Shown: piece by piece, positions 1,675-43,510 of the stretch | Layout: each line of letters begins with the position of its first letter | Numbering within the stretch: the stretch's first letter is position 1 | From: a virus | Lineage: Duplodnaviria > Heunggongvirae > Uroviricota > Caudoviricetes | Direction: 5' to 3' (one strand) | IMG/VR virus record: IMGVR_UViG_2706795377_000001 | Coordinates: 52,360 to 116,359 of that record | DNA length: 64,000 nt | Position numbers and translations under genes: made by a program | The notes under the pieces: model-generated | Seen by the model: only the letters and a program-made list of their open reading frames with translations | Databases searched by the model: none | Told to the model about the DNA's origin: nothing

Positions 1675-3096
1675 ATGGACAAATATGTTCCTATTATAAC
1701 TAGTCAAGCTAATGCTTCGGAGTATGGAGGTATTGATAACTTTACTGTTTACTCTTCAGGAAATTACAATAAAAGCACTTACCCTAGAGAGATACTTAAT
1801 CGAGATAATCAAGTTGGTTGGGGGAGCAAAACAGGTGATAGACTTGCATGGGTTAGAGTTTTATTTCCACATGTCTACGCTCCAAGAAAGTTTACTATGT
1901 CTACTCCAATTGATGTAGTAATGACAAAGCGAACACCAACCAAATTTAAAATATATGGTATTCGTGAGAATTATCGAAACGTTCATGAGGCATATCAATT
2001 GAGAGCAGATACTTCAATTACTGTCGAACCTGATTGGGCTGGTGCAGACTTGCTTCTTGATGTGAATGAGGGGGAAGGATTTTGGAGTCCAAACCAAACT
2101 AAAGAATGGATAATCAATAAAAGCAATAAAAAGTACATCGGCTTCTATGTTTACATGTATGGGAAAGAAGAAGCTTGGACAGGTACTATGGAGTACTTCA
2201 TTGGAGAAGTTCAGATGTACACATATATTAATGATGAAAAGGATGTTGCGCTGATTAAAAGAAGTGTGGATGGCAAGTATATCTCTATTCAGAAGAACAG
2301 GCTTCATGCAAATCTATTTTCTGTAAGAGATTTGCATGAAGAAAGAGAAAGGTTTTACACTTTTAAATCACAAAGAAATATACGTTCTCCCTTTAGGGTG
2401 TATTTGAATGGAGCAGAAAATTTCTATATATTTAGCGAGACAGCTTACACGAAAGGAAAGTGGTACTATGAAATAAGAGTGTCTTCGGGAGATTCGAATT
2501 ATGGGCAAGCCACATACCATATGCTTGGATGGCACAGCAAAAGCGATATTGAGAACGTTGTGATTCCATATGAAGGCGATGGAGTTTATTTGTTTTGCGT
2601 AAATGGTAATTTATATGGAGCAATTGAACGAAAAGTAGATTATCAATATACCAAAAATACAAGTATGGTTGATAGAATTGGAATTGCTATAGATTTAGAT
2701 AATGATTATTTTGAAGTGTATTATGATGGTGCTTCACAAGGGAAAGTTAAAATGCGTTCTATGGGGAAACCTCTTGTTCCAGTTGTTGGATGTGGTTCAA
2801 GTAGTGTAGGTGAGGTTACTCTTGTTGACAATCCAAAATACCTACCAAAAGGATATAAAAACATTGTGAGAAAGCGAGATTACGAAGATATTATTGTTAG
2901 ATTTGAAGATGCCCCAACTGTTGATGATTATAAGAAGTATGGCGTAAAAGAAGGGGAGTCAATAGAATTTGACAAGCCTTATAACAAATTGAGGGTGTTT
3001 ACAGAAGCTACGATAAATACAGCTAATGGGAAGATTCATTCGTTTAAAATTGTTCCTAGCGCTGAAACAATTAATAAAGTTAGGATTGAGGTGTAA
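1675..3096 (+). CDS. Phage structural protein with galactose-binding-like and SPRY/B30.2-like segments
   Basis: 473 aa. RBS AAGAGGTGA. N-terminal part LAWVRVLFPHVYAPRKF is discoidin-like. Central part GKWYYEIRVSSGDSNYGQATYHMLGW..GVYLFCVNGNLYG..IGIAIDLDNDYFEVYYDG matches the SPRY domain pattern. Confidence 0.45.
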   Translation: MDKYVPIITSQANASEYGGIDNFTVYSSGNYNKSTYPREILNRDNQVGWGSKTGDRLAWVRVLFPHVYAPRKFTMSTPIDVVMTKRTPTKFKIYGIRENYRNVHEAYQLRADTSITVEPDWAGADLLLDVNEGEGFWSPNQTKEWIINKSNKKYIGFYVYMYGKEEAWTGTMEYFIGEVQMYTYINDEKDVALIKRSVDGKYISIQKNRLHANLFSVRDLHEERERFYTFKSQRNIRSPFRVYLNGAENFYIFSETAYTKGKWYYEIRVSSGDSNYGQATYHMLGWHSKSDIENVVIPYEGDGVYLFCVNGNLYGAIERKVDYQYTKNTSMVDRIGIAIDLDNDYFEVYYDGASQGKVKMRSMGKPLVPVVGCGSSSVGEVTLVDNPKYLPKGYKNIVRKRDYEDIIVRFEDAPTVDDYKKYGVKEGESIEFDKPYNKLRVFTEATINTANGKIHSFKIVPSAETINKVRIEV

Positions 3097-3098
3097 TT

Positions 3099-4745
3099 AT
3101 GATTCGTCAAACGTACTCTCATGGTTTTAATAAAACACTTAATGCTGTAATAAACTATTCAACAGATTGCATGTATTTGATAGAAAGACCTTTTGATTTA
3201 TTGTCGAATGCAATTTTAAGAACTATTAAACTCGTTGGTTCACCAACATATAAAACTCCAAAAATAAAGATTGCTATTTTCGAGGAGACAAACAAATATA
3301 AAGAGTTTAGAATTATTTGGATTGGCGAAATTGTAAATGATGGAAAGTACGGAGATAGCATTTATTATGCTGAGAATCTAAATGTTCAATGTCCAAATAA
3401 TGTTTACGTTGGCGTCCTTTACGAAAGAGGAACAAATCTTAATAAAAACACGCTCTTCGTAGATTCAAGTCAAAACACTTGGCACAATAGATATACAACA
3501 AAATTTAATTTTTCAGACTTTAAAGAAGGGTTTCTGTTCGACACAAAAGTTGATGGCGCAAGAAGTGATTATCACTTTCCTTTACAATTTGAATTTGATA
3601 TGAAAGAAGAACCAAAGGTTTTATTCCAAGATGAATCTACAGAATACAAAGTATTCAAGCCAGAACGATATGAAAATATAGCAAATGTTACTATGAATAG
3701 CACTCATATTTCAAGTAGTGGAACACATGAAAACCATCCAAATACGCTCTGGAATTTATTCGATGAAAATGACAATACTTTTTGGATAAGTTCAACTGAA
3801 ACGACATTTCCTAAGTATGTAAAATACGATTTTGGCGTACCTACAACTCTTGATAGATTTGAGATGACACCAGCAAAATCGCCTGTTCATGGTCAAAATG
3901 ATTGGGGGATTAGAAGTTGGACTTTGTATGGCTCTAACGACGATGTTTCGTATAGAGAGGTATTTAAGTCAGATATAACAACATCTAATAAGAATCTTGA
4001 CCAGTACAATTATGCGAATGGAAATGGTTTGAGGTTTGTTAATTTTATTAACAGTAAGCCTACATTCAGATATTTTAAGGTCGAGTTCAAAGACACTTAT
4101 GTAAGTGCAATACCATACAGTAACATTATTGCTATTCAACATATGCGATTTATGAAGTTGCGCGAAAAGACTTGGGAATCAATTGGGGTAGATGTAACCG
4201 AATCAGACTTTATCAATTATGGTATGACTATTGATGAAGTTGAGAATATGACAAATGAAGATTTTAATGAATTGCAAGGTAATTACACAATACAAGTATT
4301 TGTTGAAGATGCTAATTTAGATAAAATTTCAATTGTTAAAGAAACAGAAGAACAAATTTGGTTGAGGAATGAAACAACTGACGAATTCGATGTTGTTAGA
4401 TATACAGAAAATATTTATCTTGAAGAAGCCAAATATATTATTGATAATGGAAATAAAACATTAAAGGACTACTTCAACACAGTTGATGTGTCTGTTTATA
4501 CAGAGGAACCGAATCCAACAAAAAAACAAATTGAAATAAATCAACAATATAGCCCATTAGATGAATTAAGTGGCGACATTGAAATGTATGAATACAGCGA
4601 TATTGATTTAGCCAGAAGCCCAAAAGCTGATAAATCAATATTTGAAGAAGATTATACCCATTCAATTAATGGCGCATATGTAGATAGTGTTGAAATCAAT
4701 TTGAATGATACGAAAGGAAAGGCTAATAGGATAATTAACCCATAA
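3099..4745 (+). CDS. Phage structural protein with F5/8 type C (discoidin)-like domain
   Basis: 548 aa. RBS GAGGTG, and the ATG overlaps the previous stop. Segment NTLWNLFDENDNTFWISSTETTFPKYVKYDFGVPTTLDRFEMTP is typical of a discoidin/galactose-binding fold. Confidence 0.45.
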   Translation: MIRQTYSHGFNKTLNAVINYSTDCMYLIERPFDLLSNAILRTIKLVGSPTYKTPKIKIAIFEETNKYKEFRIIWIGEIVNDGKYGDSIYYAENLNVQCPNNVYVGVLYERGTNLNKNTLFVDSSQNTWHNRYTTKFNFSDFKEGFLFDTKVDGARSDYHFPLQFEFDMKEEPKVLFQDESTEYKVFKPERYENIANVTMNSTHISSSGTHENHPNTLWNLFDENDNTFWISSTETTFPKYVKYDFGVPTTLDRFEMTPAKSPVHGQNDWGIRSWTLYGSNDDVSYREVFKSDITTSNKNLDQYNYANGNGLRFVNFINSKPTFRYFKVEFKDTYVSAIPYSNIIAIQHMRFMKLREKTWESIGVDVTESDFINYGMTIDEVENMTNEDFNELQGNYTIQVFVEDANLDKISIVKETEEQIWLRNETTDEFDVVRYTENIYLEEAKYIIDNGNKTLKDYFNTVDVSVYTEEPNPTKKQIEINQQYSPLDELSGDIEMYEYSDIDLARSPKADKSIFEEDYTHSINGAYVDSVEINLNDTKGKANRIINP

Positions 4746-40951: not shown

Positions 40952-42244
40952 ATGGCTGAAAGTTTAACTTTCACATCATTGGGGGAACTGGTAAAAGGAA
41001 AACGAATAAATTTAGGTCTAAGCCTATCGGAACTATCTAGGAAAACTGGGGTTAGTAAAGGGATACTATCTAAGATTGAATCAGGTGAAACAAAACGCCC
41101 TGAACTAAGGAACCTTAAATTAATTGCAGATGGGTTACAGATTCCTTATGACGATGTAGTTGAGCTTTATATAGAGATTGAACATAGAATGAGCATTTTT
41201 GAGGATTTTCTTTGGGAAGCGATTGCCGTTTCTAGTCCCTCTTTGATTGAAAAAGTGGCTAGTAAGTTCCTTGAAGATTCTAAAAAAGATACCTTCGAAT
41301 CATTAGAAAGTATCTTTGTGATTGCAAATACTATTAAAAACAATGATGCTAGATTAGCACTTTACAATACTATAATTAAATATGCGAGAATACACGGTAT
41401 ACCAATGTATATAGCTAAAGGGTTATATCAAAAATATCTGATTGACAGACAGGATTTAAAACGGATGGACAAATCTTTTAAAGATGGTGAAGAAATCCTC
41501 CATTATGTCGATTTTTTATCTCATGAAGATAAAGTTACATACTACTACAAGATTTCATTACAGGCATATGCTCTAAAATACTACGATTCATGCATAACAT
41601 TAGGGAAAAAAGGGCATGAGGAAGATTGTACAGTAAACGAATTGAAAGAGCGTGTTGCTTTAGCAATTTGTAATTCTTATTTACTTTTAAAAGATTACAC
41701 TACTTTGGAAGAACACCTCTCGTTGTATGAGAATTTGAACTACACTTTCATAATTGAGCGTGTTCAATATTATCGCGCTCTTATACTTTCAAAAACAGGA
41801 AATTATGAAGAAGCACTCCCTTTACTTTGGAGATGTTTCGAAGAAGTTACAGATTACCAAAGATTGCACAGAGCTAACATGTTACTAGAAGCACTGTTTG
41901 AGATTAATGATTCTGATTCTATTCGGAGAATTATAGAATCAGAAGAGAAGAAGTTTTTAATTTTAGAAAATGAACCATTCCAGTGTTTAGAATTAGGTAA
42001 ATACTATAGGTTCAAAGGGACTTACCTTGTTAAAAATGAATCATTTGATTTAGGAATGGAGGCTTATCTTAGTAGCATTTATCACTATGGGAAAATAAAT
42101 GCTTATAAAGAAATTACGGAATGTTCAAGAGACATTTATTTTTATCATAGTTCGATGAAAAAAAACATAAGCTTTGATATGTCATCTAAATTGGAAAAAT
42201 TGTATAATTTATCTAATGACATTATAGAAAGAGGTGATAAGTAA
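40952..42244 (+). CDS. RNPP-family quorum-sensing receptor (N-terminal XRE-type HTH + TPR-like domain; AimR/NprR-like)
   Basis: 430 aa. RBS AGGAAGGGGA. HTH LGLSLSELSRKTGVSKGILSKIESGETKRPELRNLKLIADGL, followed by about 370 aa of helical-repeat sequence. Its stop overlaps the ATG of a signal-peptide ORF (TAATG). Confidence 0.6.
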   Translation: MAESLTFTSLGELVKGKRINLGLSLSELSRKTGVSKGILSKIESGETKRPELRNLKLIADGLQIPYDDVVELYIEIEHRMSIFEDFLWEAIAVSSPSLIEKVASKFLEDSKKDTFESLESIFVIANTIKNNDARLALYNTIIKYARIHGIPMYIAKGLYQKYLIDRQDLKRMDKSFKDGEEILHYVDFLSHEDKVTYYYKISLQAYALKYYDSCITLGKKGHEEDCTVNELKERVALAICNSYLLLKDYTTLEEHLSLYENLNYTFIIERVQYYRALILSKTGNYEEALPLLWRCFEEVTDYQRLHRANMLLEALFEINDSDSIRRIIESEEKKFLILENEPFQCLELGKYYRFKGTYLVKNESFDLGMEAYLSSIYHYGKINAYKEITECSRDIYFYHSSMKKNISFDMSSKLEKLYNLSNDIIERGDK

Positions 42245-42390
42245 TGAAAAGAATTTTTTGGGGCGTATCGGTATTTTTAACAATGTTTTCTTTCTCTCTT
42301 CTAGCATTAGAAAATGATAAAACAGAACACTCCACAAATAAAATTCAGCATTACGCAATAACTGTATATACTGATAATCCCGGTTATTAA
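42244..42390 (+). CDS. Secreted pro-peptide (48 aa), candidate signalling peptide cognate to the RNPP receptor
   Basis: Not in the ORF track. ATG at 42244 overlaps the receptor stop by 1 nt. RBS AGAGGTGA at 7-nt spacing. Encodes MKRIFWGVSVFLTMFSFSLLALENDKTEHSTNKIQHYAITVYTDNPGY. The arrangement matches AimP, Phr, NprX and PapR pro-peptides. Confidence 0.5.
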   Translation: MKRIFWGVSVFLTMFSFSLLALENDKTEHSTNKIQHYAITVYTDNPGY

Positions 42391-42409
42391 TCAATGAATA
42401 TTACTTTTA

Positions 42410-42437
42410 AAGAACGCTATTGTAGCGTTCTTTTTTT
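42410..42437 (+). terminator. Rho-independent terminator after the peptide gene
   Basis: AAGAACGCTA ttg TAGCGTTCTT followed by TTTTT. A second, weaker hairpin with a T7 run sits at 42474-42496. Confidence 0.65.
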
Positions 42438-42561
42438 ATGGAAAATTTATAATTCTTTGTCGAAATTTGAAGAACGTTTCATGTTCACGTTTTTTTAAGG
42501 CGAACATGCATCTTTTGGTAAAATAATACATAAGAGGAAGGAGGTGCTTATTTATTAGTGT

Positions 42562-42846
42562 ATGTTTTTCAATGATAAGAGGTGTTCCCACTGTCTCCAA
42601 ACTTACGGGAACACCTCCTCCTTAAGTAACCCTTTTGTTACTCAAACTCATTTTACCACTCACCTACAGAATGTGAAAACAGAAAATTCTCAACAGAGAA
42701 ATGATTTACAGAAGCTTATAGAACTCCTCCGTAAAGAATTAGAGATGTTGTATTACAAAGAAGGTTCATTTGTACACCCAACCGTACTACAAATGAGCCA
42801 ACAACTAGATGAGTACATCGTTATGTTTGAGAAGATTAAACACTAG
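42562..42846 (+). CDS. Spo0E-like sporulation regulatory phosphatase family protein (start uncertain)
   Basis: C-terminal 55 aa NDLQKLIELLRKELEMLYYKEGSFVHPTVLQMSQQLDEYIVMFEKIKH fit the Spo0E-family pattern, including the SQxLD signature. The ATG at 42562 lies 21 nt from the nearest SD, which is unusually far. The in-frame GTG at 42673 would give a 58-aa product. A strong hairpin lies within the 5' region at 42579-42618. Confidence 0.5.
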   Translation: MFFNDKRCSHCLQTYGNTSSLSNPFVTQTHFTTHLQNVKTENSQQRNDLQKLIELLRKELEMLYYKEGSFVHPTVLQMSQQLDEYIVMFEKIKH

Positions 42847-43033
42847 TTGGTCATTAAGAGTAGGCTGTACGGAAAACTTATACAAAGCCCATTAGGGGTA
42901 ATGATTATTATAGCCGTTTTTCAGCTATTCATGGACAACTAAAAAGAGAATATAGTGAAAATATTCCAAATAAGGTTTATAATGAAAAAGTATGTTGTGT
43001 AAATATTTCCTAAACTAAAAGGAGCGAGTAATC

Positions 43034-43510
43034 ATGAAGAGAAAAATGATTGAGGCTTTAGCCTTAACTTGCGTACTCTCTGGTGTTAGTGTTATACCTG
43101 CATTTGCCGAAGCTAATAATGTGAACCAAGTTGAAGAAAATCGAATAGTTACGAATAAATCTAGCGTTACTCCTCAAGGACTCATTCAACCTATGAAAAC
43201 TAAAAAAATACTTACCAAAGACCTAGCTAATACCGAAATGGCAGAAGAGTTTAGTGTCAATAGGAGTTATGGATGGGTCAAGGTATATGTACACAACGAA
43301 GGCTCTAAGACAATTAATATTTCAGTCACCGATGAAAACGGCAATGAGAAAATGAGCGGAAAAGTAAAGCCCGGAAAGACTTGGACGGGATATGGCGAAA
43401 AGCCTTGGGGGATTGGTGATTATACAGTTGGACTGACGTCAGGACAAGCTAAAATGTCTGGTAAACTCTCAGTTCGTATTGCCCAAAACCGAGATGAATT
43501 AGACGATTAA
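43034..43510 (+). CDS. Secreted hypothetical protein (signal peptide, beta-rich)
   Basis: 158 aa. RBS AAAGGAGCGAG. Signal peptide MKRKMIEALALTCVLSGVSVIPAFAEA. Confidence 0.45.
   Translation: MKRKMIEALALTCVLSGVSVIPAFAEANNVNQVEENRIVTNKSSVTPQGLIQPMKTKKILTKDLANTEMAEEFSVNRSYGWVKVYVHNEGSKTINISVTDENGNEKMSGKVKPGKTWTGYGEKPWGIGDYTVGLTSGQAKMSGKLSVRIAQNRDELDD

Follow-up and report, generated by a model that had tools for sequence, protein, structure and literature searches.

A conserved control region ahead of the spo0E-like gene of Brevibacillus phage Sundance, with a predicted antisense RNA

The receptor-peptide-spo0E locus and its relatives

The stretch of DNA analysed here (the window, 64,000 nt of a Caudoviricetes record in IMG/VR) is 100% identical to Brevibacillus phage Sundance, in which genes gp120 to gp123 are annotated, and the region of interest is the gap that separates the propeptide gene gp121 from the Spo0E-like gene gp122 (42410-42673; Table 1). 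The product of gp120 begins with a helix-turn-helix domain (Pfam HTH_3, E = 5.9e-12), and its AF2 model (pLDDT 88.5) is all-helical, with 23 helices. When this model was compared with the PDB by Foldseek, the PlcR-PapR-DNA complex (3u3w) came out on top with E = 6.5e-5 and a low TM-score (0.23/0.31); generic TPR proteins are interleaved in the list, where AimR and Rap are also present, and the TM-scores range from 0.2 to 0.4. Sequence searches returned nothing beyond HTH and PPR/TPR repeats from the PDB, and HTH matches only from NCBIfam. The protein thus has the N-terminal HTH of a receptor of this kind and, to judge from the model, its C-terminal TPR-like peptide-binding domain. Nearly all of its 108 homologues come from Brevibacillus, those from Paenibacillus being 33-44% identical. 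The start of gp121 overlaps the stop of gp120 and its product has the hydrophobic N-terminus expected of a secreted propeptide, the C-terminus of which, D(D/N)PG(Y/H), is kept in most relatives that have a peptide gene. By its domains and gene layout, gp120-gp121 is read as an RRNPP/Alo-like receptor-peptide pair; elsewhere, relatives of AloR13 have been required to share 30% identity or more with it at a coverage of no less than 80% (PMC10075063).

Sundance has been named before as carrying a viral RRNPP system next to spo0E (Bernard et al., bioRxiv 10.1101/2021.07.15.452460), viral systems adjoining spo0E are also reported in PMC10075063, and an adjacent spo0E-like gene is found at 37 of 80 related loci. 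For the gap itself, 20 related leaders from B. laterosporus chromosomes, plasmids and phages, IMG/VR and metagenomes were compared (loci are designated by L numbers where they have to be told apart). Both hairpins discussed below are carried by 18 of these 20, all of them related paralogues, and 15 leaders entered the alignment of the promoter region. The spacing from peptide gene to spo0E is about 285 nt throughout the relatives. When the promoter/5' SD motif was searched as an exact pattern in the genome collection, it gave 0 matches, and the relatives were gathered by other routes.

Table 1. Observed and predicted features of the Sundance locus (window coordinates)
Feature	Position	Strand	Details
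gp120, RRNPP-type receptor/regulator	40952..42244	+	N-terminal XRE HTH and all-helical TPR-like domain (modelled)
gp121, 48-aa secreted propeptide ending ...TDNPGY	42244..42390	+	from ORF list
Intrinsic terminator of receptor-peptide operon	42409..42437	+	stem 42409-42419/42423-42433, 11 bp, loop 3 nt, then T-run
Spo0A-box-like tandem repeats (candidate)	42456..42474	+	TTTGTCGAA with perfect 0A box TGTCGAA 42458-64, spacer ATT, TGAAGAA 42468-74
ACGTTTC motif, candidate regulator half-site	42474..42480	.	CGTT invariant, TC nearly so, in 15 leaders
Inverted repeat CATGTTC-N15-GAACATG, candidate operator	42480..42508	.	centre 42494, about -37
Extended -10 of spo0E promoter (predicted), TGgTAAAAT	42516..42524	+	predicted TSS ~42530-42532
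SD-like element AAGAGGAAGGAGGTG at predicted 5' end of spo0E mRNA	42532..42546	+	unique in window
Predicted cis-antisense sRNA, ~70 nt	42570..42643	-	5' end G 42643, 3' end ~42570-42575
Hairpin 1, read as intrinsic terminator of antisense RNA	42579..42617	-	U-tract TTATCATTG at 42578→42570
Hairpin 2, read as 5'-terminal stem-loop of antisense RNA	42624..42643	-	arms 42624-42630/42637-43
Antisense promoter (predicted)	42650..42677	-	-35 TTCACA 42677→42672, TG 42658→57, -10 TAAAAT 42655→42650
gp122, Spo0E-like protein, 57 aa, GTG start	42673..42846	+	Pfam SpoOE-like, E = 4.1e-12; start as in RefSeq

The sense promoter region and the 5' end of the leader

The terminator of the receptor-peptide operon, which the initial annotation had placed at 42410-42437, was recovered by our scan with its G+C stem and U-run and is conserved, its stems differing in sequence among relatives yet still pairing (e.g. 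GGACACCACC/GGTGGTGTTC and GAACACTGCTG/CAGCAGTGTTC). The weaker terminator said to follow it in tandem (42474-42496) did not hold up: it is a mere 5-bp AACGT/ACGTT stem that fails the terminator scan, survives in just the two nearest relatives, L003 and L006, while L004 and all more distant ones have lost it, and sits within the promoter/operator region of spo0E.

Between terminator and promoter lie two Spo0A-box-like repeats, a perfect 0A box and, 3 bp after it, a second one with two mismatches, so that at the level of sequence the region has the TGTCGAA box, usually accompanied by another about 10 bp away, that marks a Spo0A-controlled promoter. The longer TTTGTCGAA occurs a single time in the 64-kb window, and the weight of the boxes rests on their conservation because one exact 0A box in 64 kb equals the chance expectation (0.93). 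Box 1 has at most one mismatch in 14 of the 20 relatives, box 2 is perfect in L216, and the boxes keep a constant place 60-62 nt upstream of the -10 element. The box consensus and the 3-bp spacing are the same as in phi29 and Nf, where the consensus TGTCGAA of a phage promoter region is likewise accompanied, 3 bp away, by a less perfect second box (PMC2731898); those boxes repress phage early promoters, whereas the Sundance candidates precede the spo0E-like gene. Since the Spo0E-like product would dephosphorylate Spo0A~P, the candidate boxes would make a feedback loop.

The inverted repeat at 42480-42508, proposed earlier as an operator, is indeed perfect and unique in the window. It has one arm mismatch in L003 and L006; in other subgroups its place is taken by dyads of different sequence, the centres of which deviate from that of the Sundance repeat by no more than 1-2 nt (e.g. 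TTTTTTCTA..TAGAAAAAA in L099 and L092, and with a single mismatch in L124). The repeat covers the -35 position of the spo0E promoter, and nearly all relatives conserve the extended -10 of this promoter, G.AAAATA.T showing no variation in 15 leaders, which makes a function as operator plausible. The -35 of this promoter is poor, none passing the scan, and the best reading of the sequence is that of an activator-type promoter. A family-wide operator of the form CGTTTC-N~27-GAAACG was tried and discarded, its mean best match being 3.93 compared with 3.85 in shuffles, which is not significant.

The initial annotation had also noticed an SD-like GGAAGGAGGTG that lacks a well-spaced start codon; the element is there and no conserved start codon or ORF follows its conserved core (AGGAGGAAGAAAGGAGG) in the relatives, its true position being 42536-42546, six bases from the 42530-42540 originally given. 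What might a strong SD-like sequence do at the very beginning of a leader if not recruit a ribosome to a nearby start? The STAB-SD of the cry3A mRNA was reportedly described by Agaisse and Lereclus in 1996, and by analogy the Sundance element is probably a 5' stabiliser of the mRNA. The two have in common an SD-like sequence (GAAAGGAGG in most relatives) near the 5' end of a leader of some 130-140 nt, at a long distance from the true start codon, and in B. thuringiensis cry3A this sequence does not serve to initiate translation (reviewed in PMC4113751); they differ in that the Sundance 5' end is predicted from the -10 element, and in that short variable ORFs come after the SD in several relatives. 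At the other end of the leader, the view that neither candidate start of spo0E has a convincing ribosome binding site was confirmed: the 20 nt that precede GTG 42673, a codon aligning with ATG in L009, L097 and L117, contain no SD, and ATG 42562 lies 17 nt past GGAGG.

Two hairpins and the strand to which they belong

Hairpin 1 is the perfect 11-bp inverted repeat GAGGTGTTCCC/GGGAACACCTC (42579-42589/42607-42617) that was rightly singled out from the start. It had been credited with sequestering an SD-like AAGAGGTG, an idea that fails, as a start codon after this sequence is missing from all 20 relatives; the anti-SD-like CACCTCC is found in Sundance only, the relatives having CGCCCC. On the minus strand, the purine run 5' of the hairpin (AAAAGGA, AAAGGGG or AAAGGAG in relatives), which had been taken for the hidden SD, becomes CCTTTT or CCTTTG after the stem, with a T-rich tract directly there in all relatives, and would read as the U-tract of a minus-strand terminator. 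Hairpin 2 was absent from the initial annotation, as was the minus-strand promoter (42677-42650).

A check of hairpin conservation and covariation, suggested at the outset, showed that both hairpins are kept, with compensatory changes. Among the 324 pair cells in the 18 sequences, 283 are Watson-Crick and 12 are double changes, at 4 pairs; 96.9% are paired on the minus strand versus 88.0% on the plus strand, and sliding the partner by 1-3 columns, as a control, left 47-57% paired. In hairpin 1, 98.9% of the cells are paired, with minus-strand G·U at 5 column pairs; in hairpin 2, one pair has gone from A-U to G-C by double changes in 8 of the 18, and U·G or G·U pairs occur on the minus strand only. 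Taken together, 31 cells are G·U on the minus strand (hence A·C on the plus strand) against 2 of the reverse kind; these wobble cells fall at 8 column pairs and stand for at least 10 events versus 2, independent events being few (~10 versus 2, binomial ~0.02) and the sequences being related paralogues. Folding points the same way (minus -29.9 kcal/mol, z = -5.8, and plus -24.4, z = -4.9, in Sundance; -30.9/-16.7, -29.1/-19.2, -30.9/-25.0 and -27.5/-26.0 kcal/mol for minus/plus in others), and with longer segments the minus strand is the more stable in 7 of 8, a stability owed partly to its G+U-rich composition, with z-scores nearly equal for L008 and L007. The terminator of the peptide gene, a control known to act on the plus strand, leans to the plus strand. 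A covariance model matched at homologous sites only, apart from weak and uncertain matches of 26-34 bits located 3' of divergent spo0E genes (L048, L011, L046, L016).

Upstream of hairpin 2, as seen from the minus strand, the predicted promoter TTCACA-16-TAAAAT with its TG has 10 of 12 matches and is the best TG-extended match in the scanned region, its -35 overlapping the GTG start codon of spo0E. The case for it rests on conservation, because promoter-like matches are no commoner than chance in such AT-rich DNA (14 found, 12.8 expected): TGnTAnAAT is invariant in 18 of 18 sequences while A, C, G and T are all seen at position 3 of the hexamer, and between the -10 and the hairpin there are 6 variable nt followed by an invariant G, which places the hairpin 7 nt from the -10. 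Judged by sequence, the antisense RNA would therefore have an opposite-strand promoter of its own as well as a terminator and a conserved fold fitting the minus strand, with two caveats that concern the terminator, namely a loop of 17 nt and a weak U-tract in Sundance (5 T in 8, partly paired into an extended stem). It is this long loop that makes the terminator scan miss hairpin 1. A long-range RNA helix between TGGTAAAAT (42516-24) and ATTTTACCA (42650-58) was also considered and rejected: it shows no compensating changes, and both segments are better understood as -10 elements. From the wobble pairs, the U-tract and the conserved promoter, the hairpins most likely belong to a minus-strand RNA.

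Could the hairpins instead act only in the plus-strand 5' UTR of spo0E, as a stability element, a site for RNase III or a protein, or a modulator of translation, with no antisense RNA at all? Structured 5' UTRs are common in Firmicutes, the plus strand of Sundance forms both hairpins with the energy given above, the whole 310-nt plus strand folds better than its shuffles (z = -3.85), and double compensatory changes fit pairing on either strand, so the hairpins may have some role in the sense leader. We nevertheless consider this explanation unlikely, though it deserves to be kept in mind, as it has to accept 31 cells, against 2, as A·C mismatches and a plus-strand fold that is much weaker in most relatives (e.g. 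-16.7 versus -30.9 kcal/mol), and it leaves unexplained why, on the opposite strand, an invariant TGnTAnAAT and the hairpin are separated by exactly 7 nt, why a T-tract follows the stem on the minus strand, and why subgroups differ in the orientation of the hairpin 1 loop, an inversion that is neutral for a sense/antisense pair. That inversion, which implies recombination across the arms, together with the perfect 11-bp arms in Sundance, could also be taken to mean that the palindromes work as DNA (a protein-binding or recombination site, or a cruciform); strand-asymmetric wobble changes would be meaningless for such a site, and two helices, a T-tract and a promoter amount to the geometry of an sRNA gene, so we give the idea very little credence.

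The same holds for the scheme of the initial annotation, an attenuator or translational switch composed of tandem terminators and an SD-sequestering hairpin. An alternative pairing between AGGAGGTG (42539-46) and CACCTCCT (42612-19), which are complementary in Sundance, and the absence of an SD before GTG 42673 would suit it, but the pairing is not conserved in relatives, the second terminator has fallen away, the supposedly sequestered SD lacks a start codon in any relative and attenuation or read-through lacks a substrate because no plus-strand terminator follows the hairpins. Nor did an Rfam scan of 42200-43100 on both strands give any match at E < 0.4, all being below half the gathering score, and no known cis-regulatory RNA (riboswitch, T-box, leader or attenuator) was recognised. 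It is just as improbable that the leader is coding, either for a 94-aa Spo0E starting at ATG 42562 or for an ORF behind the 5' SD that is translationally coupled to spo0E. Sundance does have an uninterrupted frame starting at 42562, the SD is followed by short ORFs in several relatives (MYVFQ* occurs in Sundance and L093, and MFF* in L006, L099 and L092), and the start codon shares bases with a TGA (GTGA/ATGA). All the other relatives checked, however, have a stop in the spo0E frame upstream of the annotated start, in most of them at most 84 nt from the QKLIE anchor, so that the 94-aa ORF is open in Sundance only; ATG 42562 has its GGAGG 17 nt away, the Pfam domain spans only residues 49-91, and the leader ORFs vary in frame, length and start. 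Coupling had been suggested by L003; the idea was dropped since L004 and L006 have interruptions in this frame and other relatives use a different one. A 54-aa ORF on the minus strand (42436-42600) is not conserved, and among the relatives compared neither strand of the leader holds a conserved ORF. What did stand from the initial annotation is that this is no plain mRNA leader, for it combines a conserved RNA structure carrying compensatory changes with a regulated promoter.

A proposed circuit and its known counterparts

With slightly better than even confidence, we take 42410-42673 to be the control region of the spo0E-like gene with two convergent transcription units, one of them for an antisense sRNA. 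From the sequence features and their conservation, which are observed, we infer both transcripts, their ends and all regulatory effects of the following circuit. The receptor-peptide operon would stop at its strong terminator, and a sigma-A promoter consisting of an extended -10 with no usable -35 would start the spo0E mRNA near 42531, the tandem Spo0A-box-like repeats lying at about -73 to -57 and the dyad over -37 being the likely site of the RRNPP regulator. The mRNA would open with the strong SD-like sequence without a start codon. From the other side, the minus-strand sRNA would begin with G 42643 and hairpin 2 under the direction of the -10 at 42658→42650 and end at hairpin 1 and its U-tract near 42570, yielding an RNA of ~70 nt that is complementary over its whole length to the central part of the spo0E leader of 140 nt. 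The face-to-face promoters are 125 bp apart, and their collision may hold down the Spo0E-like output; so may the duplex, by allowing RNase III to sever the protective 5' end from the coding part. It would then take a regulator that drives the sense promoter hard to raise expression, which would create a threshold.

The nearest likeness is to AloR13-AloP13-spo0E of Paenibacillus polymyxa, in which the spo0E promoter, located in the aloP-spo0E gap, is turned on by AloR13 and turned off by the peptide (Voichek et al. 2020, PMC7425212). An HTH+TPR receptor, a short secreted propeptide gene and a spo0E-like gene follow each other in the same order, with the spo0E promoter in the peptide-spo0E gap, receptor activation being a property of Alo13. 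In Alo13, a canonical AGGAGG precedes the ATG of spo0E by 8 nt (from a primer sequence), whereas Sundance spo0E has none. The papers on Alo13 and on viral RRNPP systems stay at the gene level and mention neither leader structures nor antisense RNAs nor 0A boxes, and we found no paper on a detected ~70-nt antisense transcript acting on spo0E here. In mechanism, the proposed circuit resembles prgQ/prgX of Enterococcus faecalis plasmid pCF10 (Anti-Q and Qs RNAs; PMC3181467), which shares with it an RNPP regulator, convergent promoters and a small structured antisense RNA (predicted in our case) directed against the 5' leader of a pheromone-controlled operon, and which is known to act through RNase III and transcriptional interference. 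In pCF10, however, the antisense RNA makes up the 5' portion of the mRNA for the regulator itself and enhances the sense-strand terminator IRS1 (PMC3181467), whereas in Sundance the regulator lies upstream on the same strand, the predicted sRNA is stand-alone and there is no sense-strand terminator; this is accordingly not a switch of the prgQ/prgX type, and the analogy, in which there is no sequence relationship, is one of mechanism only. Arbitrium (AimR-AimP-aimX of SPbeta-like phages) also has an RRNPP receptor and peptide, a terminator and a receptor-controlled downstream transcript. It differs in that the Sundance target is a recognisable Spo0E-family gene, in that gp120, by its structural model, best matches PlcR rather than AimR, and in that the predicted non-coding RNA would be antisense to the target rather than the target itself. 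The early suggestion of an aimX-like regulatory RNA thus came near the reading favoured here with regard to the kind of molecule, and missed its strand.

How widespread would such an antisense element be? Hairpins are wholly absent from the spo0E module of SecTim467, and among 29 distant receptor-peptide-spo0E loci a comparable minus-strand terminator is present in the leader at 2 (L026 and L037), possibly at a third (L036), so the element is not essential to the circuit. At L212-215, where another gene takes the place of spo0E, the hairpins and the antisense -10 have decayed, and the sense promoter and SD are kept. It is possible, and we put it forward tentatively, that the RNAs form an undescribed sRNA family of the B. 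laterosporus group, present on phage, plasmids and chromosomes and antisense within quorum-sensing-controlled spo0E-like leaders, such that an RRNPP receptor with its peptide, Spo0A~P acting via 0A boxes and an antisense RNA converge on one gene.

One practical lesson is that both strands of a palindromic 'leader hairpin' should be examined before it is taken for an attenuator. As for phage peptide signalling beside sporulation regulators, a role in sporulation timing has so far been proposed from gene order only; should both the Spo0A boxes and the antisense RNA prove genuine, a single 260-bp region would offer testable wiring of a peptide signal, the state of the phosphorelay and an RNA brake. 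This would add an RNA layer to a phage quorum-sensing circuit known so far at the gene level, and would make it the second RNPP-type system, after pCF10, to be shaped by convergent antisense transcription. Paralogues have almost the same stems, so that cross-talk between the phage RNA and resident copies of the host might occur as well, and the three inputs together would constitute a thresholded or bistable switch over host sporulation.

The receptor-peptide-spo0E locus and its relatives

The window is 100% identical to Brevibacillus phage Sundance (NC_028749), record coordinates being converted to window coordinates by subtracting 52359. The receptor gp120 carries an XRE-type HTH (Pfam HTH_3, E = 5.9e-12), and its confident, all-helical AlphaFold model (pLDDT 88.5) has PlcR-PapR-DNA as top PDB match, with AimR and Rap among the matches listed; residues 49-91 of the long gp122 ORF match Pfam SpoOE-like (E = 4.1e-12). 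Sundance was named among phages with an RRNPP quorum-sensing pair adjoining spo0E (Bernard et al., bioRxiv 10.1101/2021.07.15.452460), and in Paenibacillus Alo13 the gap separating the peptide gene from spo0E contains a promoter that is activated by the receptor and turned off by the mature peptide (Voichek et al., PMC7425212); the intergenic region itself is described in neither study. At the gene level the system is of a known kind, and the RNA layer is new and testable.

Homologues of gp120 (108 matches, nearly all Brevibacillus) form a large paralogous family with many copies per genome. Related leaders, i.e. gaps between peptide gene and spo0E, were collected from B. laterosporus genomes (loci L003, L004, L006, L212-L215 and L216-L220), plasmids (L007-L009), a GTDB genome (L025), IMG/VR contigs (L092, L093, L097, L099) and metagenomes (L117, L124), with homology checked by nhmmer. 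The two genes lie ~285 nt apart throughout, and the leaders share a terminator whose stems differ in sequence yet still pair, a box TTTGTCGAAATTTGAAGAACGTTTCA, TGGTAAAATAAT, AGGAGGAAGAAAGGAGG, and two hairpins followed by ATTnTAnCAnTCA.

The initial annotation had read this leader as tandem terminators preceding a hairpin that hides an SD sequence. The first terminator is real, and both the inverted repeat and the perfect 11-bp repeat are present, as is the SD-like GGAAGGAGGTG, albeit not at 42530-42540, where it had been placed. The second, ‘weak’ terminator is not called by the terminator scan and is kept only in the nearest relatives (L003 and L006), while the supposed hidden SD before hairpin 1 is a purine run (AAAAGGA, AAAGGGG or AAAGGAG in relatives) with no start codon after it. 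Attenuation and SD sequestration are not supported; the broader notion of a regulated leader containing a regulatory RNA has support, and the observation holds in part. Folding of the plus-strand leader is more stable than that of shuffled sequences (z = -3.85), and an Rfam scan of both strands brought no family near threshold.

Features of the locus, in window coordinates
Feature	Position	Description
gp120	40952-42244	RefSeq: 430-aa ‘DNA-binding protein’
gp121 (propeptide)	42244-42390	RefSeq: 48-aa hypothetical protein
First terminator	42409-42437	11-bp stem, 3-nt loop, T-run
Spo0A box 1	42458-42464	TGTCGAA, within TTTGTCGAA
‘Weak terminator’	42474-42496	5-bp stem
Inverted repeat	42480-42508	7+7
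Sense -10	42516-42524	TGgTAAAAT
Sense start (predicted)	near 42531	
5' SD	42536-42546	GGAAGGAGGTG
Five-codon ORF	42558-42575	GTG TAT GTT TTT CAA TGA (MYVFQ)
Antisense sRNA (predicted)	42643→~42570	minus strand
Hairpin 1	42579-42617	arms 42579-42589/42607-42617; 17-nt loop 42590-42606
Hairpin 2	42624-42643	
Direct repeat TACAGAA	42665-42671, 42707-42713	flanks spo0E start region
gp122 (Spo0E-like)	start 42673	GTG; RefSeq: Spo0E-family protein
gp123 upstream region	42864-43099	TATAAT at 42978-42983
gp123		RefSeq: 158-aa protein; next annotated gene of the four

A putative small RNA gene on the minus strand

On which strand do the hairpins act? Pairing, stability, terminator and promoter agree in favouring the minus strand. 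In an 18-sequence alignment (A7) of the two helices (324 cells), 96.9% of cells pair when read on the minus strand (283 are Watson-Crick, and 4 pairs contain 12 double-change cells between them); sliding the partners lowers the figure to 47-57%. Reading the plus strand instead turns 31 minus-strand G·U cells into A·C mismatches, with only 2 cells in the reverse case, and brings the paired share down to 88.0%. The minus-strand wobbles occupy 8 column pairs and need at least ~10 substitutions, versus 2 in the opposite direction, the aligned sequences being mutually related and independent wobble events few. The peptide-gene terminator, necessarily a plus-strand element, served as control and leans plus wherever wobbles occur. 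Predicted stabilities (minus versus plus, kcal/mol) are -29.9 versus -24.4 in Sundance, -30.9 versus -16.7 in L003, -29.1 versus -19.2 in L025, -30.9 versus -25.0 in L008 and -27.5 versus -26.0 in L007, and among 8 longer segments the minus-strand fold has the greater stability in 7.

Read on the minus strand, the purine run preceding hairpin 1 has the form of a terminator tail (CCTTTT or CCTTTG in relatives) directly after the GC-rich stem; the loop of this terminator is long and the Sundance U-tract is the weakest of the set. At the other end, ATTnTAnCAnTCA reads on the minus strand as TGAnTGnTAnAAT, an extended -10 in which TG, T1, A2, A4, A5 and T6 are invariant in 18/18 and position 3 takes all four bases (TAAAAT, TACAAT, TAGAAT, TATAAT), followed by six variable bases and the invariant G that opens hairpin 2. 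With a -35 (TTCACA) 16 nt upstream in Sundance, it is the region's best TG-extended match in a promoter scan in which promoter-like hexamers were as frequent as chance. Promoter, purine start, 5' stem-loop, 7-nt linker, terminator stem-loop and U-tract together make up the predicted anatomy of a small RNA gene.

Could the conservation instead reflect coding? A 94-aa ORF was rejected, since its frame is open in Sundance only and an upstream stop is found in every other relative checked; this closing stop lies upstream of the annotated spo0E start and, in most relatives, at most 84 nt from the QKLIE anchor. The Sundance GTG is aligned with ATG in L009, L097 and L117, and the L003 group has its ATG 4 nt downstream. 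No leader peptide is conserved, since the short ORFs that follow the 5' SD vary in both frame and length, and no minus-strand ORF is conserved among relatives. The five-codon ORF, 13 nt past the 5' SD, is also encoded in L093, with MFF in L006, L099 and L092; neither is conserved family-wide. Moreover, in several copies spo0E no longer has a usable start or frame although the RNA element is retained, which is thus better conserved than the gene downstream: AAG stands at the start position in L093 and L216, L025 has a frameshift, L217-L219 an early stop, and L008 a deletion of exactly the segment between the TACAGAA repeats; the annotated starts of such copies are ATT or ATA. L124 is likewise among the copies with an abnormal start or disrupted frame.

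A covariance model run over 438 kb of related loci found homologous sites only, apart from a weaker relative in B. borstelensis (L026) and some uncertain matches. Among 29 more distant receptor-peptide-spo0E loci, a comparable minus-strand leader terminator occurs only in L026, L037 and possibly L036; the element is confined to one clade. Weak matches (26-34 bits) directly 3' of spo0E genes divergent from the receptor (L048 933-1058, also L011, L046 and L016), with a similar GGGCGTTCC...GGAACGTCC hairpin and a TG-extended -10-like motif, could be distant relatives of the small RNA or merely terminators.

Subgroups differ in the orientation of the hairpin 1 loop, with CAAACTAAC on the plus strand in loci of the Sundance/L003 type and on the minus strand in those of the L025 type (matching loops were compared in L025, L009, L097, L117, L216, L219 and L220), which implies that recombination across the arms has inverted it. 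Such an inversion would be neutral if both strands were transcribed and paired with each other, which fits a sense/antisense pair. The pattern in L212-L215 (about 2937-3250) fits it too: spo0E is replaced there by a gene for a 194-202-aa secreted protein with its own SD, driven by the retained sense promoter and 5' SD, and both the hairpins and the antisense -10 are decayed.

Sense promoter, candidate operators and the 5' SD

Most hexamer positions of the sense -10 are invariant in 15 leaders (G.AAAATA.T), and the promoter scan found no acceptable -35, features that would suit activator dependence like that of the Alo13 promoter. The inverted repeat, which L003 and L006 carry with one mismatch, has its centre 25 nt before this -10, at about -37; in other subgroups the dyads are unrelated, with centres that fall within 1-2 nt of this position (e.g. 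9-bp TTTTTTCTA..TAGAAAAAA), an arrangement expected of paralogue-specific operators but no proof of them. The search for a long-spaced partner of the conserved ACGTTTC across the family gave no significant match.

Upstream of the dyad, the perfect Spo0A box is the sole exact copy in the window, as many as chance would give, and is followed after 3 bp by a second box, TGAAGAA; phi29 and Nf have consensus-plus-imperfect boxes at the same spacing (PMC2731898). The position is fixed among relatives, 60-62 nt from the sense -10; box 1 has at most one mismatch in 14/20, and box 2 matches exactly in L216, with a single mismatch in L007 and in L124. Input from Spo0A~P to a gene whose product strips Spo0A~P of its phosphate would form a feedback loop.

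Given the predicted 5' end of the mRNA, the 5' SD would be 2-15 nt from it and ~130 nt ahead of the start codon, and no conserved translation product follows it among relatives. With the mRNA end so predicted, its geometry would match that of the cry3A STAB-SD, which binds the 30S subunit and blocks RNase J1 (PMC4113751). In a related module of phage SecTim467 (L002 2890-3180), an unannotated propeptide gene ending DDPGY (stop 2995-2997) is found between gp71 and the spo0E gene gp70; this module retains terminator, 0A-like box, -10 and 5' SD without hairpins or antisense promoter, and its SD is still 23-29 nt from the start.

A possible threshold on Spo0E-like production

The DNA preceding gp123, which encodes a secreted protein, shares 88% identity with a SecTim467 segment (L002 5001-5236) located directly after a second receptor/peptide pair (gp69/gp68) and before gp67, and is equally conserved in L003. 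This region contains an CCGTTTTTCA motif resembling the ACGTTTCA box. gp123 looks like a second quorum-sensing target module in tandem after spo0E.

As for the leader, the predicted convergent promoters have -10 elements 125 bp apart, and the antisense -35 overlies the spo0E start codon. The most likely mechanism, judging from this arrangement, is that the antisense RNA would pair with the sense leader from about +40 to +113, downstream of the putatively protective 5' SD and ahead of the coding sequence. Colliding polymerases and duplex formation would block sense transcription as long as it is weak, and RNase III, invoked by analogy with the pCF10 Qs/X pair that it cleaves (PMC3181467), might cut the duplex and so part the putative stabiliser from the message. 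Once driven strongly by the receptor, sense transcription would overrun the antisense promoter. Production of the Spo0E-like protein would then be subject to a threshold, as would the point at which the phage stops or allows host sporulation.
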